DNA of 64,000 nucleotides from an uncultured Chloroflexia bacterium (GCA_963752475.1 CAVVYR010000006.1:799074-863073); one strand, 5' to 3'; positions 6,146 to 25,289 are shown, numbered from the stretch's first letter. A program made the numbers and translations. The notes: generated by a model not told the origin, from the letters alone.

Positions 6146-6688
6146 ATGGGGGCAATGGCTGGAACGGTCGATCAGGAGCTGGTCGGGCTCGCCGAGTCAG
6201 CGATGGCGGGCGATGAGCTCGCTTTCGCCCGCATCGTCTCCGGGCTGCACGAGCAGGTCTACTCCATCGCCATGATCGTCTGCCGTGAGCGGACGCTGGC
6301 GGAGGAGGCCGAGGCCGCGACGTGGACACAGGTCTGGCGCAAGCTCAGCTCGGTCCGACAGGGCGATCGGTTGCGGCCGTGGGTCGTGGCCATCGCCTTC
6401 AACGAGGCCAAGCAGGTCCTGCGAAAGCGCAGGCGTTGGTTCCGCCACGAAGTCGCGACCGAACCGGTGGAGGCACCCGGTGGGCTCGACCCCGCGACCG
6501 GTGTGCCTGGCATCGACCTGCGTCTCGCGGTGCAGGAGCTCGATCCGGATGACCGGGCGCTGCTGACGATGCGTTACGTGCTGGGCTTCGACGCGACCGA
6601 GCTCTCGAGCGCGATGGGCCTGACGCCGTCTGGCGTCCGTTCACGCCTGGAACGCCTCCTGGCACGCCTGAGACAGGAACTCGAGTGA
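6146..6688 (+). CDS. ECF RNA polymerase sigma factor (cassette 1)
   Basis: GDELAF region 2, C-terminal HTH (GVRSRLER); start could be 6155. Confidence 0.9.
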   Translation: MGAMAGTVDQELVGLAESAMAGDELAFARIVSGLHEQVYSIAMIVCRERTLAEEAEAATWTQVWRKLSSVRQGDRLRPWVVAIAFNEAKQVLRKRRRWFRHEVATEPVEAPGGLDPATGVPGIDLRLAVQELDPDDRALLTMRYVLGFDATELSSAMGLTPSGVRSRLERLLARLRQELE

Positions 6689-7884
6689 TGAACGACAAGC
6701 AAGCGTTCGAACGGCAACTGGGCGACGAGCTCCGACGGCAGATCGGAGCCATCCCCGAAGCCAACGCACTCGACGTTGCTCGCTCGCTCGCAGGGCGAGC
6801 GCCGGCCGGCCATCCTGTCTCGGGCCTCGCCTCATCAGTGTCCTTCGGAAGGGGGTTCCCAATGTCAGCAACACTCAAGTTCGTCGCGGGCGCGGCCGTC
6901 ATCGCCTTGATCGGAGGCGTCCTCGCGACCGCGCGCGTGCTGGAGTCGGACCCGGCAACGGTCCCGGGCGCGCCGCTCGAGACCCAGCTCGTGGCGACGT
7001 CACAGTGGGAGACGCGTGGCGATCCGGACAATCCGCTGCTCTTCGGCAACTCGATCGAGGTGGCCCCGGACGGCAACATCTGGGTCCTGGACGCCAGGGG
7101 CGGGTTCCAGATCATCGCGCCCGATGGTTCCTTCGTCGAGAGCTGGGGCTCTCCCGGCAGTGGCGAGGGCGAGCTGGACTTCGACCGCGAGATCGACAGC
7201 CTCTACTACGGAGACATCTCCTTCGCCCCCGATGGCAGCTTCTACGTTGCGGAGTCGGGCAACCACCGCGTGTCCAAGTTCGATGCCGATCGGGAGTTCG
7301 TCATGAGCTGGGGTGGCAAGGGCACCGAGGATGGGCAGTTCATCGACGTCATCGGCGTCTCGGTCGCTCCGGACGGGAACGTCTACGTCATGGACGACGA
7401 ACGCTATGAGGTTCAGGTCTTCGATCCTGAAGGGCAGTTCCTTTTCAAGTTCGCAGGCCCCGGCGACGAGGCGCACAACCTCAAGGATCCCGGCACGCTC
7501 GACGTCGATGCCGATGGCACGGTCTTCGTCGACGACTGGGGCAACAGCCGCATCGTGAAGTACACGGCCGAGGGCGAATACATCGGGGAGTGGGGCGAGC
7601 GCGGGATGGGCGATGAGCCATACGCCCTGATGAACCCGCACGGCGTCGACATCGGCCCCGATGGCCGTGTGTACGTGGCCGACATGCGCAACGATCGCCT
7701 GAAGGTCTACGAACGAGACGGCACCTATGTGGCGACGTTGGGCGGCGAGTACGGCAGCGATCTCTACGTGGGCAAGCCAGTAGGCGTGGGCGTGGCCGAG
7801 GACGGCAGCGTCTACGTCATGCAGTACAACGTCAAGAGCCTCGAGAAGATCCACGTCGAGGAGGTCCCGGCCACGGGCGAGTAG
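6685..7884 (+). CDS. Putative anti-sigma: short cytoplasmic N-terminus, TM helix, extracellular NHL beta-propeller
   Basis: Start overlaps the sigma stop; hydrophobic segment after Met60; NHL repeats (YVAESGNHRVSKFD, WGGKGTEDGQF). Confidence 0.8.
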   Translation: MMNDKQAFERQLGDELRRQIGAIPEANALDVARSLAGRAPAGHPVSGLASSVSFGRGFPMSATLKFVAGAAVIALIGGVLATARVLESDPATVPGAPLETQLVATSQWETRGDPDNPLLFGNSIEVAPDGNIWVLDARGGFQIIAPDGSFVESWGSPGSGEGELDFDREIDSLYYGDISFAPDGSFYVAESGNHRVSKFDADREFVMSWGGKGTEDGQFIDVIGVSVAPDGNVYVMDDERYEVQVFDPEGQFLFKFAGPGDEAHNLKDPGTLDVDADGTVFVDDWGNSRIVKYTAEGEYIGEWGERGMGDEPYALMNPHGVDIGPDGRVYVADMRNDRLKVYERDGTYVATLGGEYGSDLYVGKPVGVGVAEDGSVYVMQYNVKSLEKIHVEEVPATGE

Positions 7885-7971
7885 AAGCGCGTCGCCGACG
7901 CGAGCGACGCCACGTCGATGGGCGACGGGCGTCGCTCCTTAGGACGCCCTGCTGCCGGATGGGCAGGAAGA

Positions 7972-7998
7972 AGCCCCGCCGGGAATGCCGGCGGGGCT
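7972..7998. terminator. Stem-loop between convergent genes
   Basis: AGCCCCGCCGG-gaatg-CCGGCGGGGCT, 11-bp perfect stem. Confidence 0.7.
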
Positions 7999-8035
7999 CT
8001 TGCGCTGGGGCCGTACTAAGCGTGGAGCGAGGGTA

Positions 8036-8905
8036 TCAGTCCTTGTCCACCGTCATCTGATCCCAGAGGGCACCGGCGTTGTGGCCCATGATGTAGTCCA
8101 TCATGTACTCCTGACCGATGTCGACCGGGAAGCGCTCCTTGAGGTTGACGCGCTCCTGTGTCTCCTCGCGGGACAGGCCCTCGGCTACCGCCGAAGCCAC
8201 GCGCGACTTCCATTCAAGCAGGATGGCTCGCTGATCGTCGAGTGACGAACGGTCGGTGAGTGGACCGTGCCCGGGTACCAGGTGGTCGAAGTCGAGCGCG
8301 CGGATCGTCTCCAGCGCCGCCAGCCAGCCGTCGACATCGGAGGTCATCAGCCATGTCTGACATTCGTTGAAGATGGTGTCGCCGGTGAAGACGACGCCCT
8401 CCTGGGGCACGTGCACCGCGATCTGGCCGGGCGTGTGGCCGGCCACATGGATGAGGTCGAAGGTGGTGTCGCCCACCTCCAGGCGCAGGTCGCCGGTGAA
8501 GACGATCGAGCCGTCGTTGGGATCGGCGTAGTACTCGTCCCGGTCGGGGAAGATGGCCTCACCCTCGGGGTCGTCGGTGGGGATGGCTTCCTTGGCGTAG
8601 GCGAAGGGGTCGAGGATCGGCGCCACGACCATGAAGTTGTCGGCCACGCCCTTGTGATGGACCACCGGCACCGGCTTGAAGTAGTAGTTGCCGAAGATGT
8701 GGTCGACGTGGTGCTCGGTGTTGATGACGTAGCGGATCCGGCCGTGCTTCTCGGCCTCCTCGCGCATGGCCACGGCACGCGTCGGCAGCTGCGGTGTATC
8801 GATGACGACCACGCCGTCGGTGGTGACGACGTAGCTGGGGTTGCAGCCGCGGATCCGTGTGTTGGCGAAGACGTTGGCGGTGACCTGCTCCATGGGCGGG
8901 TTCAC
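8036..8905 (-). CDS. Metallo-beta-lactamase-fold hydrolase
   Basis: NTEHHVDH, GHTPG, FTGD and VPGHG motifs. Confidence 0.88.
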   Translation of the reverse strand: MNPPMEQVTANVFANTRIRGCNPSYVVTTDGVVVIDTPQLPTRAVAMREEAEKHGRIRYVINTEHHVDHIFGNYYFKPVPVVHHKGVADNFMVVAPILDPFAYAKEAIPTDDPEGEAIFPDRDEYYADPNDGSIVFTGDLRLEVGDTTFDLIHVAGHTPGQIAVHVPQEGVVFTGDTIFNECQTWLMTSDVDGWLAALETIRALDFDHLVPGHGPLTDRSSLDDQRAILLEWKSRVASAVAEGLSREETQERVNLKERFPVDIGQEYMMDYIMGHNAGALWDQMTVDKD

Positions 8906-8930
8906 GATGGTTGGCTCCCTTCCGAAGTCG

Positions 8931-9716
8931 CTATTGGGTAGCAGTCAGGCCGCCGTCGATCCCGACGATCTGGCCGGTGATGAAGGACGAGGCATCACTC
9001 ACCAGGAAGATCGCCGCGCCCACGAGGTCGTCGGTGCCGCCCACGCGGGAGAGGGGGATGCGCGCCAGGACAGCATTCTTGAACTCGGGATCGTCGAGCA
9101 GCATGGCGACCTGTGGCGTGTCCACGAAGGTCGGGCTGATGGCGTTGACGTTGATGCCGTACTTGGCCCATTCGGTGGCCCACTGGCGGGTGAGTGAGCT
9201 GATCGCACCCTTGGCCGCGACGTAGGCGCTGTAGCCGGCATTGATGCCGAGGGCCGCGCGCACCGAGCTGATGTTGAGCACCTTGCCGCCATTGCCGGCC
9301 TTGATCATGGCCTTGACCGCGGCCTGGGTGGGCACGAGTGTGCAGCGCACGTTGATGTCGTAGATCCAGTCCCACGCGTCATCGGGATAGTCCTGCGCCT
9401 CGAAGAGGACCTTGCCCGCGCCGCCGCCGATGGCATTGACCATGATGTCCAGCTTGCCCAGGTGGTTGACGACCTCGTCGACCACGGCATCGGCCTCGTC
9501 GCGCTGGGTCATGTCACCGGCGATGGCGAGGCATTCGCCGCCTGCCGCCTCGACCTTGGCCTTGGTGCCGTCCACCGACTCCTGGCTGATATCGATCACG
9601 GCGACCTTCGCACCGGCCTCGGCGAGGGCGACCGCCATGGCTCCGCCGATGGCACCGCCGCCACCGCCGACGAGCGCGACCTTGCCATCGAGCTTGAACC
9701 TGTCCAGCTGACCCAT
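8931..9716 (-). CDS. SDR oxidoreductase (gluconate 5-dehydrogenase-like)
   Basis: GGGGAIG, NISS, YVAAK catalytic motif, IDGG; ATG at 9716 after GGAGG. Confidence 0.9.
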   Translation of the reverse strand: MGQLDRFKLDGKVALVGGGGGAIGGAMAVALAEAGAKVAVIDISQESVDGTKAKVEAAGGECLAIAGDMTQRDEADAVVDEVVNHLGKLDIMVNAIGGGAGKVLFEAQDYPDDAWDWIYDINVRCTLVPTQAAVKAMIKAGNGGKVLNISSVRAALGINAGYSAYVAAKGAISSLTRQWATEWAKYGINVNAISPTFVDTPQVAMLLDDPEFKNAVLARIPLSRVGGTDDLVGAAIFLVSDASSFITGQIVGIDGGLTATQ

Positions 9717-9922
9717 GCTGGTTCCTCCACACAACGTGTCCGCGTGCCCGGCGGCCGGGGGTTGGGCTTCATGCCCTGCAATCATCGATTATCGACGATG
9801 TCAGCCTAGATGTCTTGCTCCGAGACGAATTCGGGTGCATCGTGGAGTCGAATCGCGTGCCGCGGGCGCCATTGGTAGTAGAGGGCGCACGAAGGCTGCG
9901 TTCGGATGTCGGGATCGGGGGC

Positions 9923-10483
9923 ATGGATACCGACCTGGTGACACGAGCTCAGGCAGGGGACCGAAGCGCGTTCGCGCAGATCGCGGACGAAGTGCTCGAC
10001 CGTTTCCTGGCCATCGCACATCGCATCCTTCGCGATGGGGCCATGGCCGAGGATGCGACCCAGGCAGCGCTGCTCAGCCTGTGGCGGGATTTGCCCCGGC
10101 TGCGCGAGCCCGACCGTTTCGGCGCGTGGTCGACGCGGCTGCTGGTGAATGCCTGCTACTCGGAGGCCCGACGCGCCCGGCGCTGGCTGCCGAACCTGCC
10201 GCTCGAGGCTGTGCCTGAACCGATCGCCCCTGATGAATTCGGCGCCGTCGCCGACCGAGACGCGCTCGATCGGGCCTTCCACGATGTTCCCGTCGACCAG
10301 CGGGCGGTCATCGTCCTGCACCACTACGTCGGCATGCCCATCGAGACCGTCGCGCAGACTCTCGACATCCCGCCCGGCACGGTCCGCTCGCGCATGCACC
10401 GCGGGATGACCACGCTCCGCCGGGCCATGGAAGCCGATGTCCGACCGAATCATCGAGTCGTTCGACAGGAGGCCACGAGATGA
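9923..10483 (+). CDS. ECF sigma factor (cassette 2)
   Basis: MDTDLV..GD..AF, AEDATQ, LREPDRFGAW, GTVRSRMHR. Confidence 0.92.
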   Translation: MDTDLVTRAQAGDRSAFAQIADEVLDRFLAIAHRILRDGAMAEDATQAALLSLWRDLPRLREPDRFGAWSTRLLVNACYSEARRARRWLPNLPLEAVPEPIAPDEFGAVADRDALDRAFHDVPVDQRAVIVLHHYVGMPIETVAQTLDIPPGTVRSRMHRGMTTLRRAMEADVRPNHRVVRQEATR

Positions 10484-11247
10484 CGCACGACCGTGACCTC
10501 GACGACAGGGTCCGCACCTGGCTCGACGAGCCGCCGCCCGGTCCGCCCGATCGCGACGCCGTCTACGCCCGAGTGCTCGACCGCCTACCAGAGACCCATC
10601 AACGCCGGCACTGGTGGCCATTCCAGTGGAACCCTTTCGCCGCAGGCGCGACGCGTAGCGCCGACGCGAACGGACCACGCCCACAAGGGAGGTCCAGAAC
10701 CATGTTGAACCCAGTCCGCGCGGTGGTGCTCGTCGCCGCGCTCGCGCTCGCCAGCAGCTTCGCGATGGTGACGGAGGTGGCTGCGCCGGGGCCGATCGTT
10801 CCGGGCGCGGAGGCACCGGGCGAGGCCATCGCGCACGTCGTTGGGCAGACAAGTGGCCAACGCGAGATCGCCGAGGGTGAGATGCAGGTCACAGACCGCG
10901 CCATCGAATGGCGAGGGATGGTGGCCGAGTGGGATGTGACAGCGGACGACCCGCGCTTGAGCGGCGTGATGACGGCCGAATATGCCCTTGACAACCTCAT
11001 GGGCGTTGCCGGGGCGGCGGCCCTGGCCGGGACGCAGACGATCAGCAACGCCGATGGCGAATGGTCGGGGACGGTGGTCGGAGTCGGCGTGCCGGACACG
11101 AACGACATCCAGTTCCAGTCGGTCCTCACAGGATCGGGAGCCTATGACGGACTGACGGCCGTGGTCCGCGCCGACAACGCCGAGAACGTGCTCGTCTACG
11201 AGTTCGAGGCGGTCGTCTTCCCAGGTTCATTGCCAGGCAGCGAGTAG
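10480..11247 (+). CDS. Putative anti-sigma / exported beta-rich protein (cassette 2)
   Basis: ATGA overlap; WL.E...LPETHQRRHWW N-terminus, TM or signal segment after Met75, DPRLSG...LTGSGAYDGL domain. Confidence 0.8.
   Translation: MTHDRDLDDRVRTWLDEPPPGPPDRDAVYARVLDRLPETHQRRHWWPFQWNPFAAGATRSADANGPRPQGRSRTMLNPVRAVVLVAALALASSFAMVTEVAAPGPIVPGAEAPGEAIAHVVGQTSGQREIAEGEMQVTDRAIEWRGMVAEWDVTADDPRLSGVMTAEYALDNLMGVAGAAALAGTQTISNADGEWSGTVVGVGVPDTNDIQFQSVLTGSGAYDGLTAVVRADNAENVLVYEFEAVVFPGSLPGSE
10632..10704 (+). promoter_or_regulatory. Putative internal ECF-type promoter (CCCTTT-N16-CGTAG) plus SD (AAGGGAGGT) and internal ATG at 10702
   Basis: Motif conserved in cassettes 2, 4 and 5, including minority codons CCT and CGT; function is inferred. 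Confidence 0.55.
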
Positions 11248-11385
11248 GCGCGCTCTCGAATGCCCGCGGGCCATCCAGGCTCGCGGGCATTCTTCGATTC
11301 GAGGGACCCAGAACGCTAGCGTGCCCGTCTTACCATGTAGAGGCGCAGCAACACAGCGAGGCGCCCAAGGGCACTTTGAGGGGGA

Positions 11386-11946
11386 ATGGACACCGACCTC
11401 GTGCTTCGGGCCCAGGACGGCGACGAGATCGCGTTCGCACGCCTGGCCGACGGCGTATACGGCCGCCTGCAGCAGGTGGCCTACCGCATCCTGCGGGACC
11501 CCGAGCTGGCTCGCGACGCATCCCAGCAGGCGGCCCTCTCGATGTGGCGCCACCTGCCGGAGCTCCGAGACCCCACCCGTTTCGAGGCCTGGTGCTATCG
11601 CCTCTGCGTCAATGCGTGCCACGAGGAGTCGCGGAAGCGCAGACGCCGCCTCCCTGAGACCGAGCTGAAGCCGTGGCACGAGCCCACGGTACGTGACGAG
11701 TACCAGCGTCTCATCGATCACGACCAACTGGAACGCGCGTTCCGGCGTCTGTCATTCGAGCACCGGACGGTCCTGGTGCTGCATCACTACCTGGGGATGT
11801 CGGTAGACGAGGTCGCGACCACCCTTGACACCCCGCTCGGAACCGTCAAGTCCCGCATGAACCGAGCGCTCCGACAGTTGCGTCGGCTCCTTGCGGCCGA
11901 TGCCGCCCCGCCGCTTGCGATGAACCGACAGGAGGTCACCCGATGA
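11386..11946 (+). CDS. ECF sigma factor (cassette 3)
   Basis: Paralog of 9923..10483; LRDPTRFEAW, GTVKSRMNR. Confidence 0.92.
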   Translation: MDTDLVLRAQDGDEIAFARLADGVYGRLQQVAYRILRDPELARDASQQAALSMWRHLPELRDPTRFEAWCYRLCVNACHEESRKRRRRLPETELKPWHEPTVRDEYQRLIDHDQLERAFRRLSFEHRTVLVLHHYLGMSVDEVATTLDTPLGTVKSRMNRALRQLRRLLAADAAPPLAMNRQEVTR

Positions 11947-12656
11947 CGATCGGACACGACCTCGAGCACCGTCTCGACAGTTGGATGCAGGAAAACGCGA
12001 GCGTGCCCGACGACCTCGCCGAGGTCCTCGCGAAGCTGCCCGAGACACCACAGCGACACCATCGATGGTCGATCAGCCTCACCGATCTCACAGGGAGGAC
12101 ACGAAGCATGTTCACAGCCACACGAGTGGCCGCGTTCGTCACTATCTTCACGCTAGGAGCGACGTCTGCGCTCATCATTGCGCCGCAAGAGGAGTCGGAG
12201 CCGGTCACGGTCCCCGCAGCGGAGGCGCCCTCCCTGGACGACATGGCCCGGGTCACCTGGCATGCGTGGATGTCGAAGAACGACCCCGCCAGCGCGAGTG
12301 TGACCCAGACGGAGTACGGAGAGCTGATCGAGGGTGGTGTCGCGGAGTTCGACATCGACGCGAGCGACGATCGCCTGTCCGGCCCAGCGGAGTTTCACAT
12401 CAATTCGATGTACTTCGAGCCGGCCGACGGGCAGTACCCGGCCCAGGTATTCGTTGGCAGCGTGACCATCGAGGCTGAGGAGGGCATGTGGGAGGGCTCC
12501 TTCGTGGCCCTGGACTATCCGGGCACCCCTGACGGCGAGAGCCAACACATCCTGACGGGCACCGGCGCCTACGAGGGCCTGACGGCTGTGATGACCACGC
12601 GCGACGACGTGACCTCGGGGCTGATCTTCCCGGGCGAGCTACCCGAACTGCCGTAG
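11943..12656 (+). CDS. Putative anti-sigma / exported beta-rich protein (cassette 3)
   Basis: ATGA overlap; LPETPQRHHRW; internal GGGAGG + ATG at 12108 (MFTATRVA); DDRLSG...LTGTGAYEGL. Confidence 0.8.
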   Translation: MTIGHDLEHRLDSWMQENASVPDDLAEVLAKLPETPQRHHRWSISLTDLTGRTRSMFTATRVAAFVTIFTLGATSALIIAPQEESEPVTVPAAEAPSLDDMARVTWHAWMSKNDPASASVTQTEYGELIEGGVAEFDIDASDDRLSGPAEFHINSMYFEPADGQYPAQVFVGSVTIEAEEGMWEGSFVALDYPGTPDGESQHILTGTGAYEGLTAVMTTRDDVTSGLIFPGELPELP

Positions 12657-12667
12657 TTCTGCCCACA

Positions 12668-12705
12668 GAGAGACGCCCGCGGGACTTCCTCCGCGGGCGT
12701 CTCTC
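12668..12705. terminator. 15-bp perfect inverted repeat between convergent genes
   Basis: GAGAGACGCCCGCGG-N8-CCGCGGGCGTCTCTC. Confidence 0.75.
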
Positions 12706-12749
12706 ACGTCCAGGCCCGGAGTCTCGGGCTCCAGGCCTGGCTCGCTTCG

Positions 12750-14162
12750 TCAGCTCTCCAGATGCATTCGCTGCATCGCCGCCGAGCCGGTCTCCGTCTC
12801 CGAGGCTTCGCCAGTGACCTGGTGCCGGGTCTCGACGGTGAACTCGATGGTGGCGCTCTGGTGAGCCTCGTCCATCTGCAGGTCGCCGTAGAGCGTCGAG
12901 TTGCCGCGCTTGACCACATCGGGCCGCGGGTCGCTGTCGTAGTAGTCGATGACCACGGACGCGCTATCGGGTCCGGTGGGCAGCCAGTTGCCCACGCCGA
13001 CGCCTCGGTAGGGATCGATCGTGAGCAGGGTGCCGTCGGCATGGATGGCCGTCGTGACCGAGGGTCCGTCCTCGTGCTCCTCGACCCACAGGCTGCCCAG
13101 GCTGGGCCACCAGGCCGGGTCGACGGTCGCGGCGTCCGGCTCCGGTTGTGGCTCCGCCGGCGCCCAGTCCGTGAAGCCGTTCGAGTCGCCGTAGCGGTTG
13201 GTTGCGACTCCGGTCTCCGGGTCGATGCTGACCTCGGCGACCAAGGGCAGGGCAGCAGGATCGTCGCTTGCGAACCAGGCCGTCATGATGCCGTGGTGCT
13301 CGTCGGGCTCGGCATACAGTCCGACACCGGGGCCGACCCACGAGTTGATGCTCACCCAGGTGCCGTCCGAATGCTCGAGGTTCTGGTTGGGTCGTCCGCC
13401 GTAATCCTCGTGCGTCACGCCCAATTCGTCCGCCCTGTGCAAGTCGATGCCGATCCTGGGCTGCCAGCCGGCATCGGGCGGCGTGACCGTCTCGGCTTCG
13501 GGCGGCATCGGCGCCATCTTCTTCCGCTCCGCCGTAGAGGTGATGATGCCGAAGCTGTTCTCGTCGTAGGTCAGGGTCATGTGGTCACCGGCCTCGTCGA
13601 GTTCACCGATGAAGCGGAGCTCGGCGGTGCCGGGCTCGAGGTAGATGTAGGAGCTATCCGTGCCGGTGAAGCCGAGCTCGGCGACGAGGGAGTGGTCGCC
13701 CAGCGGCCTCCACTCCCCGAGGCCGATCCCCAGCTCGCTGTTGACGCCCGTTGCGATGCCGTCGCCATGGAAGACGTAGTAGGTGGCCGCTTCGCCGGCA
13801 TCTCGCTCGAGCCAGATGCTGCCCGGAGCGTTCTCAGGCGAGAGTGGGGCGGAAGCGCGCTCCTCTTGGCCGACGTTGAGCGCGAGCGAGCCGCTCAGCG
13901 CGATGACGGCGATGACGGCCACGATCCGTGTGGCAGTGACCATGTTCGGGTACCTCCAGTGGTGGAGCGCCCTGCCGGAACCGGGGCTACGCGTCACGCC
14001 GGGACCGAAAGGGCGCCAGTCGAGTGGCCGCAGCCACCGGTGTCTGCGCTGAGGTGTGTTCGGGAGCTGCGCGAGCACGCGGTCCAGGCCGCGGTCATCG
14101 AGCTCCGTGGGTTCTTGCATCCAGTCGTGCACGACGCGTGCCGCTTCTCGCTCGGTGGTCAT
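12750..14162 (-). CDS. Putative anti-sigma / exported protein with three internal repeats (cassette 4)
   Basis: ATGA overlap; LPNTPQRRHRW; internal GGAGG + ATG at 13943 (MVTATRIVA), TM, 3x HxDG...GxGxG(W/Y). Confidence 0.8.
   Translation of the reverse strand: MTTEREAARVVHDWMQEPTELDDRGLDRVLAQLPNTPQRRHRWLRPLDWRPFGPGVTRSPGSGRALHHWRYPNMVTATRIVAVIAVIALSGSLALNVGQEERASAPLSPENAPGSIWLERDAGEAATYYVFHGDGIATGVNSELGIGLGEWRPLGDHSLVAELGFTGTDSSYIYLEPGTAELRFIGELDEAGDHMTLTYDENSFGIITSTAERKKMAPMPPEAETVTPPDAGWQPRIGIDLHRADELGVTHEDYGGRPNQNLEHSDGTWVSINSWVGPGVGLYAEPDEHHGIMTAWFASDDPAALPLVAEVSIDPETGVATNRYGDSNGFTDWAPAEPQPEPDAATVDPAWWPSLGSLWVEEHEDGPSVTTAIHADGTLLTIDPYRGVGVGNWLPTGPDSASVVIDYYDSDPRPDVVKRGNSTLYGDLQMDEAHQSATIEFTVETRHQVTGEASETETGSAAMQRMHLES
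13941..14013 (-). promoter_or_regulatory. Putative internal ECF-type promoter plus SD and internal ATG (cassette 4)
   Basis: Minus strand CCCTTTCG-gtccc-GGCGTGACGCGTAGC; CGTAG is 43 nt before the ATG, the same spacing as cassette 2. Confidence 0.55.
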
Positions 14163-14710
14163 CGCGCCGCTCCTTCGGCCAGGGCCGCGGGGCTCGGCTC
14201 TGCGAGGGCTTGACGCATGTTGGCGAGGGCCCGATGGAGCCGCGAGTTGACGGTGCCGATCGGTACGTCGAGGGCCTCCGCGATGGCGTCGAGCTGCAGG
14301 TCGAGGTGGTAGCGCAGCACGAGCACGACTCGGTGGTCGATCGACAGCGCGGCGAAACCGCGTTCCAGTTGCTCACGATCGAGGATCCGGCCGAAGTCAT
14401 CGGGAGCGACAGGTTCCTTGGGTGCTTGCGAGCCCACGACGGGCAGCATGCGCTTGCGTCGCCGGAACTCCGCGTGACAGGCGTTGACGAGGAGACGGTG
14501 GGACCAGGCTTCGAAGCGATCGGGGTCGCGTAGTTGCGGCAGGTCGCGCCACATCAGCAGGACTGCCTGCTGGGTCGCGTCCTCGGCCGCTGGCCGGTCG
14601 CGCAGGATCCTGAAGGCGACCTGGTGCAGCCGCCCATACACCGCGTCGGCCAGCATGGCGAATGCGTGCTGGTCCCCGTTCCGAGCGTGGATCACGAGCT
14701 CTGTGTCCAT
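14159..14710 (-). CDS. ECF sigma factor (cassette 4)
   Basis: MDTELV, AEDATQQ, LRDPDRFEAW, GTVNSRLHR. Confidence 0.92.
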   Translation of the reverse strand: MDTELVIHARNGDQHAFAMLADAVYGRLHQVAFRILRDRPAAEDATQQAVLLMWRDLPQLRDPDRFEAWSHRLLVNACHAEFRRRKRMLPVVGSQAPKEPVAPDDFGRILDREQLERGFAALSIDHRVVLVLRYHLDLQLDAIAEALDVPIGTVNSRLHRALANMRQALAEPSPAALAEGAAR

Positions 14711-14836
14711 CCCCCCACCGCTCATGGCGCTGGCGTCTGAGTCGCGCCTCTGAATCGTATGGCGCACGGCAAGCGCGAAACCTTCCATCCAAGAGAACCG
14801 TCGGGTCAGCTGCGGCGCATCGGTGCCGAAACCCTG

Positions 14837-16076: not shown

Positions 16077-19000
16077 GTGCCCCGACGCCGCAAGCCCGCT
16101 CCGACCGACCCGTTCGCCGCCTTCGAAGCGCCCACGCGCGAGTGGTTCGGGTCCTCGTTCGACCGGCCCACCGACGCGCAACGGCAGGGCTGGCCGGCCA
16201 TCGCGGGAGGTCAGCACACGCTGATCTGCGCGCCCACCGGCAGCGGCAAGACGCTCGCCGCCTTCCTTTGGTGTCTGGACCGCCTGAAGCACGAACCCGT
16301 GCCGTCGGAGCCCAAGGCTCGGCTGCGCGTCCTGTACGTGTCGCCCCTGAAGGCGCTCGTGCATGACGTCGACCGCAACCTGCGTTCGCCCTTGGCCGGG
16401 ATCGGGCTGGCGGCGGAGCGGCTAGGTACGCCCACGCGTGAGGTGCAGGTCGGTATGCGCACGGGTGACACACCCGCGCAGGAGCGGCGCGCCTTCGGCA
16501 AGAAGCCGCCGGACATCCTCGTGACCACGCCGGAGTCGCTCTATCTCATCCTGACCAGCCAGGCACGCGAGGCCCTGCGCAACGTGGAGTGGATCATCGT
16601 CGATGAGATCCACGCGTTGGCCGGGACCAAGCGCGGTGCCCATCTGGCCCTATCGCTGGAGCGGTTGGAATCCATGACCGACCGTCCACCGCAGCGGATC
16701 GGGCTCTCGGCCACGCAGCGACCGCTCTCGGCCGTGGCCGCATACCTCGGAGGGCGGCAGCCGGGCGACGGTGAGAGCACGGCCGCGCCTCGGCCTGTGA
16801 CGATCGTCGATGCGGGCGTACGCAAGGAGCTCGATCTGTCGGTCGTGGTGCCGGTGGAGGACATGGGCCGTCTGGGTGAGGTCATCCCGCTCGAGGAGAC
16901 ACCCGGTGGCCCGATGGATGGGCCGGCGACGCGGACCAGCATCTGGCCCTCTGTCTACCCCCGCGTACTGGAGCTCATCCGCGAGCACCGCAGCACGATC
17001 GTCTTCACCAATAGCCGGCGACTGTCGGAGCGCCTGGCGCAGAGCCTCAACGAGCTCGCAGAAGAGGACATCGCCCGAGCGCACCATGGCTCCATCGCAC
17101 GCGAGCAACGGCTGATCATCGAGGAGCAGCTGAAGCAAGGCAAGCTCCCGTGCATCGTGGCCACGTCATCGCTCGAGCTGGGTATCGACATGGGCGCGGT
17201 GGACCTGGTCATCCAGGTGGAGTCGCCGCTGTCGGTCTCGCGCGGCCTGCAGCGTGTGGGGCGTGCCGGCCATCGGGTCGGCGAGCCCTCGCGCGGCGTG
17301 ATCTTCCCCAAGTACCGCGGTGACCTGCTGGAGGCGGCGGTGGTCACGCGCATGATGCGAGACGGCGCCATCGAGCCCACGACCGTGCCCCACAACCCGC
17401 TCGACGTGCTGGCTCAGCAGATCGTGGCCACGACCCTCGACCGGGACTGGCCCATCGACGAGCTCTACGCGCTCGTGCGGCGGGCGGAGAACTTCGCCGA
17501 TCTTGGCCGGGACACGTTCGAGGCCGTGCTGGGAATGCTTGCCGGCCAATACCCCGCTGACGAGTTCGCCGAGCTCAAGCCGCGGATCGTCTGGGACCGG
17601 GTGGCCGGCAGCGTGGCGGCGCGGAAGGATGCGCGCACCGTGGCCGTGACCTCGGGCGGGACGATCCCCGATCGCGGCCTGTTCCCCGTCTTCCTCTCGG
17701 ACGACGCTGCCGAGACCGGCGGTCCGGCGAGGGCGCGCGGTCGGGGAGGGGGTCGCCGCGTCGGGGAGCTGGACGAAGAGATGGTCTACGAGGCGCGCAC
17801 CGGTGAGGTCGTGCTGCTCGGTGCCAGCGCCTGGCGCATCGAGGCGATCGAGCACGACCGGGTGTTGGTCTCGCCGGCACCGGGCGAGTCGGGCAAGGTG
17901 CCCTTCTGGAAGGGTGACGGCGTGGGCCGGCCGGTCGAGCTCGGACGTGCGCTGGGACAGTTCACCCGGGAGATCTCGGAGCAGGCCGGTGCCAAGCGCG
18001 GTGGGCGCGCAAGGGCCATAAAGCGACTGCGCGACGAGCACGACCTCGACCAGATGGCGGCCGAGAACGTGCTCTCGTACCTCGACGAGGAACGTGAGGT
18101 CACCGGCGCGCTGCCCACAGATACGACGGTGGTGCTCCAGCGGTTCCGTGACGAGCTCGGTGACTGGCGAGTCTGCCTCTTGACGCCGTTCGGGGCGCGA
18201 GTGCATGCGCCGTGGGCGCTGGCCATCGAAGCCCGTCTGCAGGCGTCGCTGGGGGTGGACGTGAAGCCGCTCTGGTCCGATGACGGCATCGTGCTTCGCC
18301 TGCCCTCCACGGACGGGTCCTACGAGCCGGGTGAGGGCCTCGAGTCGATGGCTCAGCAGGCGGAGGCGGCGGTGCTCATCGCTGCCGACGACATCGAGGA
18401 GCTGGTGACCGAGTCGGTCGGCAGCTCGGCGCTCTTCTCGAGCCGCTTCCGCGAGAATGCGGCCCGAGCGCTGTTGCTGCCTCGCCGGCGCCCCGGCCAG
18501 CGGACGCCGCTGTGGCAGACGCGGCAACGGGCCTCTCAGCTATTGGCCGTGGCCAGCCGCTACGGCTCCTTCCCGATCATCCTCGAGACCTACCGTGAGG
18601 TCCTCCGGGACGTCTTCGACCTGCCCGCGCTCCGGGGCATCCTGGCCTCGATCGAACGCCGGGAGATCCGGGTCGTGAGTGTGGAGACATCGCGCGCATC
18701 GCCCTTCGCGTCGTCCTTGCTGTTCGACTACATCGCGACCTACATGTATGAAGGTGACGCGCCGCTGGTCGATCGGCGCGCACAGGCGCTGACGCTCGAT
18801 CGCGACCTGCTCCGGGAGTTGCTCGGAGCTGAGCAGCTGCGTGACCTGCTCGATGCGGAGGCCCTGGCCGAGCTGGAGCTCGAGCTGCAGGCGCTGACCG
18901 AGGAACGGGCGGCCGGCTCGGTCGACCAGGTACAGGACCTGCTGCGGCGCCTCGGTGACCTGAGCGACGACGAGGTCGCGGCTCGGGTGCGCGGCGCTGA

Positions 19001-20759
19001 TGCCAAGGCTCGCCGCGCGGTCGCCCAGGAGTGGCTCGAGGCGCTGGTGGCAGACCGGCGAGCGGTCTCGCTACGCGTGGCTGGTGAGGTCCGCTGGATC
19101 GCGGCCGAGGACGTCGGGCGCTACCGGGATGGCGTGGGTGCATCCCCGCCGGTCGGCGTGGCCGAGGGCTTCCTGGCGCCCACGAGCGACGCGCTCGGGT
19201 CGATGCTGGCTCGGTGGGCCCGGACGCACGGTCCGTTCCACACCGAAGGGCCCGCCGACCGCTGGCAGCTACCTCGCGGAGTCGTTGAGACCGCCCTGGA
19301 GGGCCTGATGGCCGACGGTGTGCTGCTGCGGGGTGAGTTCCGACCCGGTGGCGTGGAGCGCGAATGGTGCGACCCGGAGGTACTGCGCCTCGTGCGTCGC
19401 CGTTCGCTGGCTCGGCTGCGACGCGAGATCGAGCCGGTGGAGCCGACGGCCCTGGCTCGGTTCCTGCCGGCCTGGCAAGGCGTAGGTGCGGGGGCCGCGG
19501 GCATCGACAGGCTGGCGGAGGCCATCGGCCAGCTCGAGGGTGTGGCGCTACCGGCGAGTGTGCTGGAGCGTGACGTCCTTCCAGCGCGGGTCCAGGGCTA
19601 CAGCCCCCAGATGCTCGACGAGCTGGGCGCCGCCGGCGAGGTCGTTTGGGTCGGTGCCGGGAGCCTGGGCAAGGATGATGGCCGCATCGCCTTGTATCGG
19701 CCCGATCGCCTTGCGCTGCTGCTGCCGACACGCGTCGGAGAGGACCAGCCGGGCGAGGACGCCGGGACCTGGCTGCACGAGGCGTTGCGCCAGCACCTGT
19801 CCGCGCGTGGCGCCTCGTTTCATCGTGAGTTGCTGGGTGCGGCCCTCACTGCCGCTGCGGCCGGTGAGCGCCGACGTCCAGGAGAGCGAGAGATGCTCGA
19901 TGCGCTGTGGGACCTCGTCTGGGCCGGTGAGGTCACCAACGACACGTTCCTGCCGTTGCGGGCGCTGCGCTGGCCGCGTCGAGGGGGAGGGCGGCCTGCA
20001 GCCCGGGCGCGATCGCGGATGGGTACCCGCATGGGACCGCCGGAGGCGGCGGGGCGCTGGTCGCTGGTGGAGGAGACGCTGCGGACGGCGGTCGCACTCG
20101 CCGACGGCAAGGAGCCGACGGGCACAGGACAGCGTGCCGCCCTCGCGGCCACGCTCCTCGAGCGCTATGGCGTCGTCACCCGGGACGCCGTCGCCGGTGA
20201 GAACGTGCGCGGGGGGTTCGGGGCGGTCTACCCGGTCTACCGCGAGATGGAGGAGCGCGGACGGGTGCGCCGCGGGTATTTCGTCGAAGGCCTTGGCGGT
20301 GCCCAGTTCGCCGTCGCAGGTGCGGTGGACCGGCTGCGCTCGATGCGTCGCGGCGCCGGCGCAGACTCCAGCGACGACCCCAAGACCGTGCTGCTGGCCG
20401 CAACCGACCCGGCCAACCCGTATGGTGCCGCGCTGGCGTGGCCGCAGGACGGGGTTCGGCACTCGCGGACGCCGAGCCGTTCGGCCGGCGCCTACGTCGT
20501 GCTGCACGACGGTGAACCTGTGCTCTACCTGGAGCGTGGTGGGAAGTCGCTGCTGACGTTCTCGCCGTTCGATGACGAACGCGTCGGGGGATCGGCCGTC
20601 GATGTGCTGCGAACGCTCATCGATGATGGACGCGTGAAGCGTCTGCAGCTCGAGCGCGTGGATGGCACGGCCATCGGTGAGTCGCCATCCCGGGAGCGCC
20701 TGGCCGCCCTCGGGTTCCGGCAGGCGTACCGTGGGTACGTGCTCGGCCCAGTGGGCTAG
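16077..20759 (+). CDS. lhr: Large helicase-related protein Lhr (DExH helicase with C-terminal winged-helix domain)
   Basis: APTGSGKT, SPLKAL, DEIH, LSAT, HHGS, TSSLELGID, QRVGRAGH, RRGYFVEGLGGAQFA. Confidence 0.95.
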   Translation: MPRRRKPAPTDPFAAFEAPTREWFGSSFDRPTDAQRQGWPAIAGGQHTLICAPTGSGKTLAAFLWCLDRLKHEPVPSEPKARLRVLYVSPLKALVHDVDRNLRSPLAGIGLAAERLGTPTREVQVGMRTGDTPAQERRAFGKKPPDILVTTPESLYLILTSQAREALRNVEWIIVDEIHALAGTKRGAHLALSLERLESMTDRPPQRIGLSATQRPLSAVAAYLGGRQPGDGESTAAPRPVTIVDAGVRKELDLSVVVPVEDMGRLGEVIPLEETPGGPMDGPATRTSIWPSVYPRVLELIREHRSTIVFTNSRRLSERLAQSLNELAEEDIARAHHGSIAREQRLIIEEQLKQGKLPCIVATSSLELGIDMGAVDLVIQVESPLSVSRGLQRVGRAGHRVGEPSRGVIFPKYRGDLLEAAVVTRMMRDGAIEPTTVPHNPLDVLAQQIVATTLDRDWPIDELYALVRRAENFADLGRDTFEAVLGMLAGQYPADEFAELKPRIVWDRVAGSVAARKDARTVAVTSGGTIPDRGLFPVFLSDDAAETGGPARARGRGGGRRVGELDEEMVYEARTGEVVLLGASAWRIEAIEHDRVLVSPAPGESGKVPFWKGDGVGRPVELGRALGQFTREISEQAGAKRGGRARAIKRLRDEHDLDQMAAENVLSYLDEEREVTGALPTDTTVVLQRFRDELGDWRVCLLTPFGARVHAPWALAIEARLQASLGVDVKPLWSDDGIVLRLPSTDGSYEPGEGLESMAQQAEAAVLIAADDIEELVTESVGSSALFSSRFRENAARALLLPRRRPGQRTPLWQTRQRASQLLAVASRYGSFPIILETYREVLRDVFDLPALRGILASIERREIRVVSVETSRASPFASSLLFDYIATYMYEGDAPLVDRRAQALTLDRDLLRELLGAEQLRDLLDAEALAELELELQALTEERAAGSVDQVQDLLRRLGDLSDDEVAARVRGADAKARRAVAQEWLEALVADRRAVSLRVAGEVRWIAAEDVGRYRDGVGASPPVGVAEGFLAPTSDALGSMLARWARTHGPFHTEGPADRWQLPRGVVETALEGLMADGVLLRGEFRPGGVEREWCDPEVLRLVRRRSLARLRREIEPVEPTALARFLPAWQGVGAGAAGIDRLAEAIGQLEGVALPASVLERDVLPARVQGYSPQMLDELGAAGEVVWVGAGSLGKDDGRIALYRPDRLALLLPTRVGEDQPGEDAGTWLHEALRQHLSARGASFHRELLGAALTAAAAGERRRPGEREMLDALWDLVWAGEVTNDTFLPLRALRWPRRGGGRPAARARSRMGTRMGPPEAAGRWSLVEETLRTAVALADGKEPTGTGQRAALAATLLERYGVVTRDAVAGENVRGGFGAVYPVYREMEERGRVRRGYFVEGLGGAQFAVAGAVDRLRSMRRGAGADSSDDPKTVLLAATDPANPYGAALAWPQDGVRHSRTPSRSAGAYVVLHDGEPVLYLERGGKSLLTFSPFDDERVGGSAVDVLRTLIDDGRVKRLQLERVDGTAIGESPSRERLAALGFRQAYRGYVLGPVG

Positions 20760-20816
20760 TCGTGATTCTCGGGTGTGATGAGAGCGACGCTCGCTATGGC
20801 TGACTTGCAGGCAGGC

Positions 20817-21812: not shown

Positions 21813-21977
21813 GGCGCAAGGATCCTCCCTCGTCGGCCCGCGCCGGGGTCGGGCGCGTGGGCATGCGCGAAAGATACCGCCTCCGACTCGCGATAGCGAG
21901 TGATGGTCGTCGCCCGCACCCACGCGTGACGTACCGTTGCGTCCAACCGCTGAACAGCAGTCCAGGAAGGGACCTCG

Positions 21978-22292
21978 ATGACCGTCATCCGGATCAACGC
22001 CATCTCCGTGCCTGAGGCAGGCGGGGATGAGCTCGAAGCACGATTCGCCAAACGACTTGGCGCCGTCGATGAGCAGCCCGGTTTTCTGGGCTTCGACCTG
22101 CTCAGGCCCACGGGCGAGAACGAACGACGTTGGTTCGTGATGACTCGCTGGGAGTCGCAGGAGGCATTCCAGGCTTGGGTCGAGTCCACGGCGTTCCGAC
22201 ACGGCCATGCGCAGTCGGAGGGCGGCGGCCGGCCCGTGGCCACCGGGTCGGAGCTGCTCGAGTTCGAGGTGGTCCTCTCGAGCGAACGCTAG
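21978..22292 (+). CDS. Antibiotic biosynthesis monooxygenase family protein (MhuD/IsdG-like heme degradation)
   Basis: INAI.VP, RF..R, PGFLGF.LLRP, TRWES.EAF.AW, conserved His. Confidence 0.85.
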   Translation: MTVIRINAISVPEAGGDELEARFAKRLGAVDEQPGFLGFDLLRPTGENERRWFVMTRWESQEAFQAWVESTAFRHGHAQSEGGGRPVATGSELLEFEVVLSSER

Positions 22293-22313
22293 GCTGCCGG
22301 GCAGACCAGGCGG

Positions 22314-23246
22314 CTACGTCGGGGCCTGTCCTGGCTCGTTTGCCAACGGCTCGGTTTCTGCGACCGTCTTCCCCCCGGCATCCCCTTCGTCGAGGCCGAA
22401 GAAGTGCCGGCCATGTCGGTACGCCGCATCCCAGGCGTGGGCCACTCGCCCGGGGGCGTTCCACCATGTCGTGAACGCGTCGCGCACGACCTCGCGATCC
22501 TCGCGGGCCTGCTCGCCCCAGGAGCGCCACTCGAACCAGCGCGGGTGGGCCCAGATCCAGGGCACGGCTGCCCAGATCAGCAGGATGTAGTCGAGGCGCA
22601 GCGGCCGAGGGAAGTTGATGACCAGGTCCAGCTGCCGGACGACCTGAGGCCAGACGGCCAGCGTCAGCACGCCGAACAGGACCATCCAGGCGATGCCCCA
22701 CAGGCGCGTCCTCGGCTTGAGGATGAGGAACAGCAACAGCGGGAACCACTTCAGGGCGGTCGCCAGTGCCCAGAAGAACCCGCCGAGCCGCGGTCCGACG
22801 AAGTGCGCCGCCCAGATGCCCATCGCGCAGAGCAGCGTGATGTTGCCGGTGTCGAGCGTGGCGGCCAGGGGGATGGTGATGATGACCACGAGGATCGCCG
22901 TCGCCATCGGGTGCTGACGGTACGCCCAGGCCACGCTCCAGCCGAAGAGCAGCAGGTTGACCATCCGATAGACGAACCAGGCCGTCTCCCATGGCAGCGC
23001 GGCCCAGGGCGTGAAGATCGGTAGCGACCACGACCAGTAGACGTAGGGCATATACGGCGGAGGAGGGTCGAGCGGGTCACCGCCGCTGAGCCAGAGGCGG
23101 ACGCCACCCCAGTAGGCGCGCGCGTCGGCGCCGACGAGGTCACCTCGGGCGATGATCCAGACCGCGATGGCCGCGCCACAGACGACCAGGATGAGGATGG
23201 CGGCCAGCCGCACGGGGTCTCGCGCGAAGCTCAGATTCGGGCGCAT
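22314..23246 (-). CDS. GT-C (glycosyltransferase family 87-like) polytopic membrane protein
   Basis: D..AYW, PYVY, GNI and ALK.FP motifs with multiple TM helices. Confidence 0.7.
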   Translation of the reverse strand: MRPNLSFARDPVRLAAILILVVCGAAIAVWIIARGDLVGADARAYWGGVRLWLSGGDPLDPPPPYMPYVYWSWSLPIFTPWAALPWETAWFVYRMVNLLLFGWSVAWAYRQHPMATAILVVIITIPLAATLDTGNITLLCAMGIWAAHFVGPRLGGFFWALATALKWFPLLLFLILKPRTRLWGIAWMVLFGVLTLAVWPQVVRQLDLVINFPRPLRLDYILLIWAAVPWIWAHPRWFEWRSWGEQAREDREVVRDAFTTWWNAPGRVAHAWDAAYRHGRHFFGLDEGDAGGKTVAETEPLANEPGQAPT

Positions 23247-23293
23247 CCGAAGCATCGTACCGCCGAGCGGCGCAGGCCATAGACTCGTTGCCG

Positions 23294-24476
23294 ATGACGA
23301 CGACCCCGAGCGCGACGACGCTGGGGCGGCTGCGCGACGAGGTCCAGCGCCGACTGCCCGACTACCTGACGGACCTCGAGACCATCGTCAACATCGAGTC
23401 CGGGTCCTACACCAAGTCCGGCGTCGACGAGGTGGCGAACTGGATTGCCGGCCGGCTCGCGAACCTCGGCGCGGCCATCGAATGGGACCGGAACGAGGAA
23501 CTGGGCGACACCGCGGTGGCCACCCTGGAGGGCTCCGCCGGTGGGCCGACGATCCTGCTCATCGGCCACACCGACACCGTGTTCGACCCCGGCTTTCTCG
23601 CCAAGCGCCCGTTCGGGATCGACCGCGACAGGATCGTGGGTCCGGGTGTCAGTGACATGAAGTCGGGCCTGCTCACCGGTCTCTATGCCATCGACGCGTT
23701 GCTGACGGTCCTCGACGGCAAGCAGCCTCCCTTTGGCCGGCTCATCTACATCGTCAACCCGGACGAGGAGATCGGCTCGCCGGCCAGCGTCGATCTCATC
23801 GCGAAGTTGGCGCAGGGGGCGGATGCGGCCTTCGTGATGGAAGCTGCCCGAGCGAACGGGGACATCGTCTCGGCGCGCAAGGGCATGATGCACATCCGGG
23901 CCACGATCCAGGGGCGATCGGCCCATGCCGGCGTCGAGCCGGAGAAAGGCCGCAGCGCGACGCTCGAGGCCGCGCACAAGACCATCGCCCTGCATGCCCT
24001 CAACGGACGCTGGTCCGGCGTGTCGGTCAATGTCGGCGAGATCAAGGGCGGCACACGCCCGAACATCGTGGCCGAGGAGGCCGTGATGACCATCGATATG
24101 CGCGCGCGCCTGGCAGTGGAGCAGGACGAAGCCGAGGCTGCCATCTACGAGATCCTCGAGTCGTCAGTCGTGCCGGACATCTGCGACCACGATCGAGAAG
24201 CTCGCCGGTACCCGCCCGATGGAGAAGACCCCGGCATCGGCCGAGCTCGTCGATGCCGCAGTCGCCATCGCCGCCGAGCTGGGGTTCGAGCTGGCCGATG
24301 CCGAGACCGGCGGGGGATCGGACGCGAACACGACGGCCGCGGTCGGCGCGCCCTCGGTCGACGGGCTCGGGCCGGTGGGCGGCAACGACCACACGCCGCT
24401 CGAGTACATCGAGAAGAGCAGCATCGTCCCGAGGACGACGCTGCTCGCTGCGTTGCTGCTGTCAGTCGACGGCTAG
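23294..24476 (+). CDS. M20 family metallopeptidase (glutamate carboxypeptidase-like); one-base frameshift near 24182
   Basis: GHTDTV, GPGVSDMKSG, DEEIGS, AHAG; C-terminus GGGSDAN...DGLG..GGNDH in the next frame. Confidence 0.88.
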
Positions 24477-24490
24477 AGCGCCTCGAGCGG

Positions 24491-25289
24491 TTACTCCGGC
24501 GCCTCGGGAAGCTCGCCTGGGAAGAGACCCCTTCGAAGTCCATCCAGAGCCCCCACGTGTCCTGGGACAGTGCTCGTGAGAGCGCGACAGGCCCTCGTAG
24601 GCGCCTTCGCCACGAACCGCATGGCGTAGGTCATCGTCCGGTCCTCGTGGGTGCTCGGTAGCCCCAGTTCGACGTCGACACCCAGTGTCCATCCTCGTTC
24701 GGTGAGCGACGGCAGCCGACGTTGCGCAACACCCCAGTTGGGTCGGCGTCGTACTTGTAGTAGTCGTGGACCGAGTGCATGTTGCCGGTGAAACGGGGGT
24801 CGTTGACCATCGACGGGGCAGTTGCGTAGCGTCTCACCCTCGATGATCGCACGACCCCATCGTTCTCGGGTCGTCCGCCGTATCCGCCGGTGGACTGCAC
24901 TGCACTCGTGCAGGTGAAGCCGCCGAAATCGGCTGGGTCGATGTCGTCCATCCGTGACGGCCCGGGGCCAGAGGGCAGCGTCGCTTCCGTGAGGGGATGG
25001 CGATGAAGGTCAGGCTCCCGGCGAGTGCCAGGATGGCCACCGCGGCCAGCGACGCGTGTGGCTGTGAACATGGATCTGGCATCTCCTTCGTTCGGGGTGT
25101 GGCGCCTCCGACGTCGGCGCTACGCGTCGCGCCGAACCCGAAAGGGAACCACCTGAATGGCCACCAGCGCCGGCGCTGGGGCACAGAGGGGAGTCGATCG
25201 ATCGTCTGGAAGAGGGTGTGGTCGTCGAGCGTGGGGGCCGGCTCCGACAGCCACTGCTCGAGCTCGCGCGTCACGTCCCGCTCGTTCAT
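24491..25289 (-). pseudogene. Cassette 5 anti-sigma/exported protein, multiple frameshifts
   Basis: MNERDV..WLSEP..LPSVPQRRRWWPFRWFPFGFGATRS; MFTATRVA at 25071; DPRFTG, GEGAYEGL and FPGELPEAPE* fall in different frames. Confidence 0.7.
25069..25146 (-). promoter_or_regulatory. Putative internal ECF-type promoter plus SD (AAGGAG) and ATG at 25071 (cassette 5)
   Basis: Minus strand CCCTTTCG-ggttc-GGCGCGACGCGTAGC. Confidence 0.5.

Follow-up and report, generated by a model that had tools for sequence, protein, structure and literature searches.

Does the gene behind an extracytoplasmic function (ECF) sigma factor encode one membrane protein or two? The question is raised by a 64,000-nucleotide stretch of DNA from an uncultured Chloroflexia bacterium (GCA_963752475.1 CAVVYR010000006.1:799074-863073; hereafter the window, to whose full length all positions refer), in which ECF sigma genes are paired with downstream partner genes that have, just before a hydrophobic stretch, an internal Shine-Dalgarno (SD) motif and start codon. 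Four of these pairs are intact and lie within 6146-14788 (cassettes 1 to 4), and one is decayed (cassette 5; 24631-25874, reverse strand). Pairs of ECF sigma and anti-sigma factors rank as the third great mode by which bacteria transduce signals, and have been viewed as a matter of one gene, one anti-sigma. Our findings suggest that the partner genes are probably dual-start genes, each specifying a long membrane anti-sigma factor and a short isoform, signal-anchored or exported, that would lack the sigma-binding head.

All five internal sites can be read directly from the sequence where a preliminary description of the window had placed them, and each internal Met is followed by a hydrophobic stretch. 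In cassette 1 the ECF sigma gene (6146..6688, forward strand) is followed by a long partner open reading frame (ORF; 6685..7884, forward) that comprises an N-terminal segment of the FERQL type, one membrane helix (approximately 6880-6933) and an NHL-repeat propeller; its start, GTG 6685 or ATG 6688, overlaps the sigma stop behind a weak primary SD (free energy of pairing, dG, -4.9), and the internal site (6847..6864, forward) consists of the SD GGAAGGGGG at 6847-6855, a six-nucleotide spacer and ATG 6862-6864, which is Met60 when counted from GTG 6685. Cassette 2 pairs a sigma gene at 9923..10483 (forward; probable start MDTDLV) with a partner ORF at 10480..11247 (forward; helix at approximately 10720-10770), whose internal site (10685..10704, forward) employs the rare codons AGG and AGA in the SD AAGGGAGGT at 10685-10693, eight nucleotides ahead of ATG 10702-10704 (Met75). 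The sigma gene of cassette 3 (11386..11946, forward) precedes a partner ORF (11943..12656, forward) with a predicted sigma-binding segment at residues 1-40, a modelled helix at residues 56-75 (approximately 12108-12167) and a C-terminal beta-barrel, and here GGGAGG at 12093-12098 stands nine nucleotides before ATG 12108-12110 (Met56; site 12093..12110, forward). Cassette 4 lies on the reverse strand, with a sigma ORF at 14159..14788 (probable start 14710, MDTELV), a partner ORF at 12750..14162 (helix at approximately 13878-13925), and an internal site (13941..13957, reverse) formed by GGAGG at 13957-13953, nine nucleotides and ATG 13943-13941 (Met74). The four intact sigma proteins (180-209 aa) all match Pfam Sigma70_r2 and Sigma70_r4_2 and NCBIfam TIGR02937 and belong to the ECF (group 4) sigma factors, in which regions 2 and 4 are present and regions 1 and 3 are lacking. 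The partner genes are adjacent to and co-oriented with them, and two further elements of the preliminary description hold as well: the upstream start overlaps the sigma stop, by ATGA in cassettes 2 to 4 and in the form GTGATG in cassette 1, and a W(L/M)xE...LPxTPQR..W segment recurs in cassettes 2 to 5.

The arrangement is that of a dual-start gene, in which an in-frame internal start has its own SD at functional spacing. The strength of these motifs was judged from the duplex energy that positions -21 to -4 of a candidate start can form with the 3' tail of the 16S rRNA of the window's own genome (4.25 Mb, 89% complete), with 12,097 internal in-frame ATGs, taken from 1,603 confident ORFs, serving as background. 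The internal ATGs of cassettes 1 to 5 score -14.5, -13.0, -10.9, -10.7 and -9.6 kcal/mol, energies that are reached by 0.04%, 0.18%, 0.77%, 1.0% and 2.0% of the background, respectively. When the codons were redrawn from genome usage with the peptide kept, the synonymous shuffles rarely equalled the observed motifs (p = 0.0005 for each of cassettes 1 to 3 and 0.04 for cassette 4), which argues that the SD motifs are not a by-product of an Arg/Gly-rich juxtamembrane peptide.

The same junction recurs across the genome from which the window was taken. A search with a head-plus-helix profile recovered 28 family members, and the column immediately before the helix is their most conserved after the first Met (M 22, V 3, I 2, G 1); two of the three Val members have GTG behind motifs of the AAGGGGG- or GGGG-type, and the third, a divergent member with GTC, is doubtfully aligned at this point. 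Energies of -8 or lower occur at 17 of the 24 pre-helix sites with ATG or GTG, against 5.3% of the background, and 11 of these 24 sites beat their synonymous shuffles at p <= 0.01 (16 at p <= 0.05). The seven codons upstream are strongly biased toward SD-forming triplets, with AGG or AGA making up 18 of 28 Arg codons (genome share 4.6%) and GGG or GGA 20 of 22 Gly codons (genome share 19%). Eleven ORFs passed a strict genome-wide scan for an SD of -9 or lower, a start codon, a helix after it and a helix-free, coding-like upstream part with an SD-led start of its own, and six of the eleven are family members. The genome encodes 36 ECF-like sigma ORFs, of which 23 have a family partner beside them; among seven membrane partners from outside the family, four lack a start codon within the 15 residues ahead of the helix. 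A separate observation concerns contig 36 of this genome, where a 328-aa ORF (reverse-strand 16928-17911) begins as a sigma factor like that of cassette 1, is cut after the start of region 4 (..DPDDRALLAMRYV) and then joins in frame ..MWRFWS-MFTATK, a helix and an outside domain. The anti-sigma head is missing from it and TGG AGG TTC TGG TCC ATG (dG -10.5) is kept, so that the locus is a natural case of the short form only.

Conservation of the internal Met and its SD in homologs, on which the preliminary description had made its proposal depend, extends from the genome to the genus and to class-level relatives. Within the genus, members were found in 10 of 12 genomes and M occupies the column in 27 of 34 aligned ORFs; the residues at -5 and -4 vary (G-R, W-R, R-R, G-G) while the GGAGG nucleotides stay constant, as in the typical GGG AGG ACC CAG NCC ATG. 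In a phylum sample of 401 genomes, matches were limited to the family of the window's organism (6/23) and one other family of the same class (7/16), and the junction there reads W-P-A-(R/W)-R-x-x-x-M-N, encoded by (C/T)GG AGG NNN NNN NNN ATG. A search with the cassette 3 partner returned 23 hits including the query, all unnamed or annotated as hypothetical protein, and at least 90% of the 22 aligned sequences, the query among them, retain its M56.

To avoid selection on the site itself, 80 public loci were fetched with patterns drawn from head residues 1-45 only (the A2 alignment); all are metagenome-assembled genomes (MAGs), mostly labelled Chloroflexota, uncultured Chloroflexia or Ca. Limnocylindria/-ales, with a few other labels. 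A sigma ORF ends at the partner start in every one of them (80/80). GGAGG is present in 78 loci and is followed by an in-frame start in 75, at a distance of 9 nt in 73 and 6 nt in two, and the start codon is ATG in 67, GTG in seven and TTG in one, with no other codon in an intact gene. In the window's genome GTG accounts for 41% of Val codons and TTG for 4.9% of Leu codons. Three of the GTG loci are close relatives, and the set therefore contains approximately five independent GTG cases. The three GGAGG loci that have no start comprise two frameshifted assemblies and one locus end, and of the two loci without GGAGG, one is a decayed copy lacking the helix and the other has GGGAGA with ATG. The primary starts have GGAGG 7 nt upstream in 73 of the 80 loci, and use ATG and GTG in a ratio of 46:10 in the 56 loci that could be aligned in register. 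In seven loci (L078, L080, L087, L099, L135, L136 and L146) the partner is frameshifted at or just after the junction, within homopolymer-rich GGAGG/GGGG runs; in these long-read MAG records the shifts are probably assembly errors rather than biology.

The wider protein record points in the same direction. A profile search of 1.84 billion representatives of 50% identity clusters gave 960 matches at E <= 1e-3 and 259 at E <= 1e-10. Among the matches listed, 146 new representatives with less than 50% mutual identity show M 132, V 10, L 1, I 1, K 1 and T 1 at the pre-helix column, and position -4 of the 132 rows with M is R in 109 and G in 19. For nearly all of the 150 matches listed, the alignment starts no later than residue ten of the protein as called, from which it follows that gene callers take the long form.

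What separates a start site from a conserved peptide is the behavior of the nucleotides, which we followed codon by codon in the 56 in-register loci of the fetched set. At codon 48, which specifies the Arg of the SD, the rare AGG is used by 56 of 56 loci, the third position of codon 47 is invariant and codon 52 is ATG, with three spacer codons that are among the most variable of the region. Other Arg residues that are equally invariant, at codons 5, 40 and 41, have third-position entropies of 0.97, 0.65 and 1.74, and the third positions of the helix are near saturation (entropy 1.2-1.9). Since the Arg codon of the SD is always AGG while the other invariant Arg codons vary silently, selection acts here on the RNA and not on the protein. 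The pattern is the signature of an SD, a spacer and a start, with all the sequence properties of a start site present, and nucleotide-level purifying selection maintains the site across a class of Chloroflexota. The head, in turn, has conserved residues with silent change at third positions, which marks the N-terminal part as coding.

Several other features of this RNA were considered. Codons 12-14 (CGG TCG TGG, the R-S-W of RIVRSWL) have zero third-position variation in the 56 loci, unlike nearby conserved codons. RNAalifold, applied to the A2 family (L070-L149), pairs the internal SD CGCGGAGG (codons 46-48) with CUCCCCGCG (codons 34-36, the L-P-A of LPATPQRR), and this predicted hairpin is a possible mask of the internal SD that upstream translation would open. 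The primary SD has an equal predicted pairing probability (~0.75), and the hairpin is indistinguishable from chance in GC-rich sequence; its covariation is unreadable because both arms are fixed by other constraints. A programmed frameshift at the rare AGG was also considered and rejected, as the frame runs on into the conserved helix and domain. Among public reads, one DNA run contained 84% of sampled words and three RNA runs 5-6%, as contigs; the RNA contigs cover short pieces (e.g., 12080-12360 and 10355-10605) in which DNA carry-over is possible, are uninformative on starts and were not used as evidence.

Cassette 5 requires separate treatment, as the preliminary description had counted all five partner genes as carriers of the internal start, and this stands for cassettes 1 to 4. 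Both the sigma gene and the partner gene of cassette 5 (24631..25874, reverse strand; partner start ATG 25289) are broken over three frames (ORFs 25120-25845, 24834-25874 and 24631-25071), with each of the two genes split between two frames and the MFTATRV stretch lying in a frame unlike those of the head and the helix. Its site comprises AAGGAG at 25088-25083, an 11-nucleotide spacer and ATG 25071-25069, and shares an identical 18-nt stretch with the site of cassette 3. Because the frame of ATG 25071 is neither that of the N-terminal part nor that of the helix, and the match to the cassette 3 site is one of homology alone, we regard cassette 5 as a decayed copy and not as an independent case. 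The more distant matches P0018-P0020 of the cassette 3 search, which share the WWPFRWFPFG motif of cassette 5, are unbroken and carry EGR..SMF, and cassette 5 was accordingly treated as a pseudogene. Between cassettes 4 and 5 the window also contains an open frame of 1,560 aa (16077-20759, forward).

The function of the long form is suggested by its position and by structural models. Across the genome, 25 of the 36 sigma ORFs are followed by a gene whose start overlaps the sigma stop by 4 nt, which supports the earlier suggestion that the long form is translationally coupled to its sigma. AlphaFold predicts for the cassette 3 partner short helices at residues 4-16 and 25-30, a helix at 56-75 and a confident C-terminal beta-barrel; a single membrane helix after the binding segment is likewise indicated by hydropathy windows. 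The preliminary description had proposed that the N-terminal segment binds the cognate sigma and had asked for a complex model, and such a model of the cassette 3 sigma (chain 1) with partner residues 1-55 agrees with it, giving an interface score (ipSAE) of 0.75 (runs 0.76, 0.74 and 0.75) against 0.00 for the best of three controls. Of 157 solved complexes, 116 reach the mark for this score, as do 2 of 215 mismatched pairs; these counts apply only roughly here, where we supplied our own alignments. The runs share at least 87% of their contacts, the partner has a predicted local distance difference test (pLDDT) value of at least 68, and the modelled contacts join partner residues 4-40 to sigma residues 10-59 and 112-169, that is, to regions 2 and 4. 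The N-terminal ~40 residues are thus predicted to wedge between sigma regions 2 and 4, consistent with an anti-sigma function. The heads on their own match no relevant Pfam or NCBIfam family at E <= 5 and no anti-sigma chain of the PDB at E <= 10, the partners of cassettes 2 to 4 match zero Pfam or NCBIfam families at E <= 0.01, and the heads have no Cys or His motif of the kind found in class I, zinc-binding anti-sigmas (zf-HC2, RsrA-like).

The predicted short form would begin M-x-x-x-(K/R) and continue with the hydrophobic stretch, and codon 57 (+5) specifies K or R in 51 of 56 loci. By eye, the group of cassette 3, within the subfamily of cassettes 2 to 5, has a hydrophobic region of ~11 residues and, directly behind it, a conserved G/A-S-x-A in keeping with the -3/-1 rule, the requirement for cleavage by signal peptidase I; in other subfamilies the stretch, judged in the same way, is ~20 residues long, has no clear cleavage motif and resembles an anchor. 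The outside domains are very diverse and include NHL and Reg_prop propellers, beta-helix/NosD, YceG and beta-barrel types, with most belonging to no recognized kind, and the ESM Atlas matches to heads and outside domains are all hypothetical proteins from Chloroflexota. The domain shared by cassettes 2 and 3 (10702-11247 and 12108-12656) has the motifs SDPRLSG, GxWEG, GTGAYEGLTA and IFPGxLP and is, in cassette 3, a confident 8-9-stranded beta-barrel (pLDDT >90) of no known family that is duplicated in the homologs P0009 and P0010. It also occurs behind ordinary signal peptides, with no anti-sigma head, on contigs 4, 8 and 31 of the same genome. The best Foldseek matches to this barrel were weak (E = 3e-3; allene oxide cyclase, AbyU and DUF3224 barrels) and were not used.

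Taken as a mechanism, the dual-start gene would operate as follows. The overlapping first start (ATGA), which usually has its own GGAGG 7-8 nt upstream, would give the long form, in which a cytoplasmic head of ~45-75 residues is linked through one membrane helix to a variable extracytoplasmic domain; the coupling to sigma termination would yield a tethering anti-sigma roughly in step with the sigma. The internal GGAGG, drawn from codons -5/-4 with their rare AGG, together with the free 9-nt spacer and the ATG, GTG or TTG, would load ribosomes independently. The resulting short form would have an ordinary signal anchor or signal peptide and the same outside domain, with no sigma-binding head. 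It could compete, free of sigma, for the signal or for the protease degrading the long form, or could be the working copy of the outside domain. We infer that initiation takes place at the internal site, that the short form is inserted or exported and that signalling is modulated as a result.

Three other explanations would account for part of these data. Pause elements resembling an SD have been put forward for the mRNAs of Escherichia coli membrane proteins (PMC4359368), and the GGAGG could likewise be an elongation pause site that gives the head time to fold or to capture the sigma, the Met being merely a conserved hydrophobic residue at the helix start. We consider this unlikely. A GGAGG-like motif in the coding region near a membrane segment is common to both, and in the partner genes it marks the boundary of head and helix in every member; however, compared with those elements, it is accompanied by a start codon at a fixed 9 nt and is located upstream, not downstream, of the helix (PMC4359368). 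That spacing is comparable to the 7 nt of the true starts, and the codon at its end is ATG, GTG or TTG in all 75 of 75 intact A2-family genes, where a hydrophobic constraint would equally permit GTC, CTG or ATC. A pause at this place would moreover precede the synthesis of the helix and could therefore not help the signal recognition particle to recognize it. A role of SD-like motifs in pausing is, moreover, disputed.

We regard the two remaining explanations as very improbable. According to one, the SD and start are relics of fusion, left behind when genes for secreted proteins were captured behind an anti-sigma stub, and are now functionless. The conserved head-plus-helix module is indeed joined to very different outside domains, heads as unrelated as the W..E..LP.TPQRR and FERQL types share the same SD-ATG-helix junction, and secreted paralogs of the cassette 2/3 domain stand alone in the same genome; yet a relic would decay, and here the AGG is retained in 56 of 56 loci, the start is exchanged only for other starts next to helix codons whose third positions are near saturation, and the feature is still present in 132 of the 146 listed representatives, which are less than 50% identical to one another. 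The capture of intact secreted-protein genes, which the preliminary description had offered as an alternative, may well be how the cassettes originated, as the diverse C-terminal domains and stand-alone paralogs would fit, but it leaves the later retention of the SD and start unexplained. According to the other, only the internal start is used, the upstream segment is an untranslated leader or a by-product of coupling, and the protein is an ordinary exported product of the sigma regulon. Cassette 1, with its weak upstream SD (-4.9) and very strong internal one (-14.5), and the contig 36 ORF, which has lost the head and part of the sigma and keeps TGG AGG ... ATG before its helix, would suit this explanation. 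It is contradicted by the head itself, which is conserved as protein with silent third-position change and is predicted to bind the sigma where controls score zero; the start of the head, moreover, has a GGAGG 7 nt upstream in 73 of the 80 loci and shares 4 nt with the end of the sigma gene in 25 of the 36 cases in the genome.

We acknowledge several points that weigh against the dual-start interpretation. The support is comparative, and all known members come from uncultured organisms; whether the short form would be exported or cleaved was assessed by eye, and the result of the complex model may partly reflect likeness to solved complexes of sigma and anti-sigma factors. Internal initiation could be rare, because ribosomes arriving from the first start would occlude the site. 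Outside the family, a start codon close to the helix is likewise seen in three of the seven membrane partners (dG -10.0, -8.3 and -7.5), and two of these three proteins resemble distant relatives. The p-values overstate the case, as paralogs and orthologs are not independent. Some members of the genome lack the feature or have a weak SD (C7:313280, with ATC; C10, -2.8; C36:35789, -6.9; C8:270158, -5.3), the feature is weak or absent in L049, L053 and L063 of the class sample, and three loci have no Met; the internal start is thus not obligatory in the family.

The finding combines two known kinds of gene, the membrane anti-sigma factor and the internal-start proteoform gene. Single-pass membrane anti-sigmas of ECF sigma factors include RseA, RsiW, RskA and RslA, with CnrY as an example of the short class II type. 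The partners resemble them in standing behind an ECF sigma gene to which they are coupled, in having a cytoplasmic head, one helix and a variable outside sensor domain, and in predicted contacts that span sigma regions 2 and 4, but differ in a head of only ~45 residues with two short helices, no zinc motif and no match to a family or solved chain. In RsiV, the single-pass anti-sigma of Bacillus subtilis sigma V, the membrane segment reportedly doubles as a signal peptidase substrate and is cut at site 1. The subfamily of cassettes 2 to 5, with its 11-residue hydrophobic region and a G/A-S-x-A that by eye fits the -3/-1 rule, may be cleaved by analogy, although we found no sequence relation between RsiV and the partners, and RsiV has no reported internal start. 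In the full-text literature searched, a scope that excludes subscription-only papers, we found no account of an anti-sigma gene with an internal start. The accessible part of a 2026 review of bacterial N-terminal proteoforms lists IF2, ClpB, SafA, sigma S, SsaQ/SpaO and FruK (PMC13515050). As in the genes it describes, an in-frame internal SD and start would here drop an N-terminal functional module; none of the examples listed there is an anti-sigma or has a short form that starts exactly at a signal or anchor (PMC13515050), an arrangement by which the two products of a partner gene would have the same topology and differ in a cytoplasmic binding head. The evidence for the partners is comparative only.

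In summary, the evidence for a second start, though drawn from sequence only, is unusually clean, with a rare codon retained in 56 of 56 loci, a free spacer and substitutions that run between start codons only. Current annotation, which always calls the long form, would hide a probable second product, and approximately 960 protein clusters may be affected. A more far-reaching and still doubtful proposal is that the ECF switches of a whole class of Chloroflexota each depend on two proteins per gene, the long form tethering the sigma and the short form, with the same helix and sensor but made in an amount independent of sigma, competing for the signal and the membrane proteases and so setting the threshold and reset of the switch, or else acting as the real effector, for whose fate the anti-sigma would be a tethered gauge; the SD-ATG-helix junction would then be a universal joint for plugging secreted-protein genes behind the head, and this would explain the many different outside domains. 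If true, the ECF switch would gain a built-in modulator from a conserved second start that takes away just the sigma-binding head.

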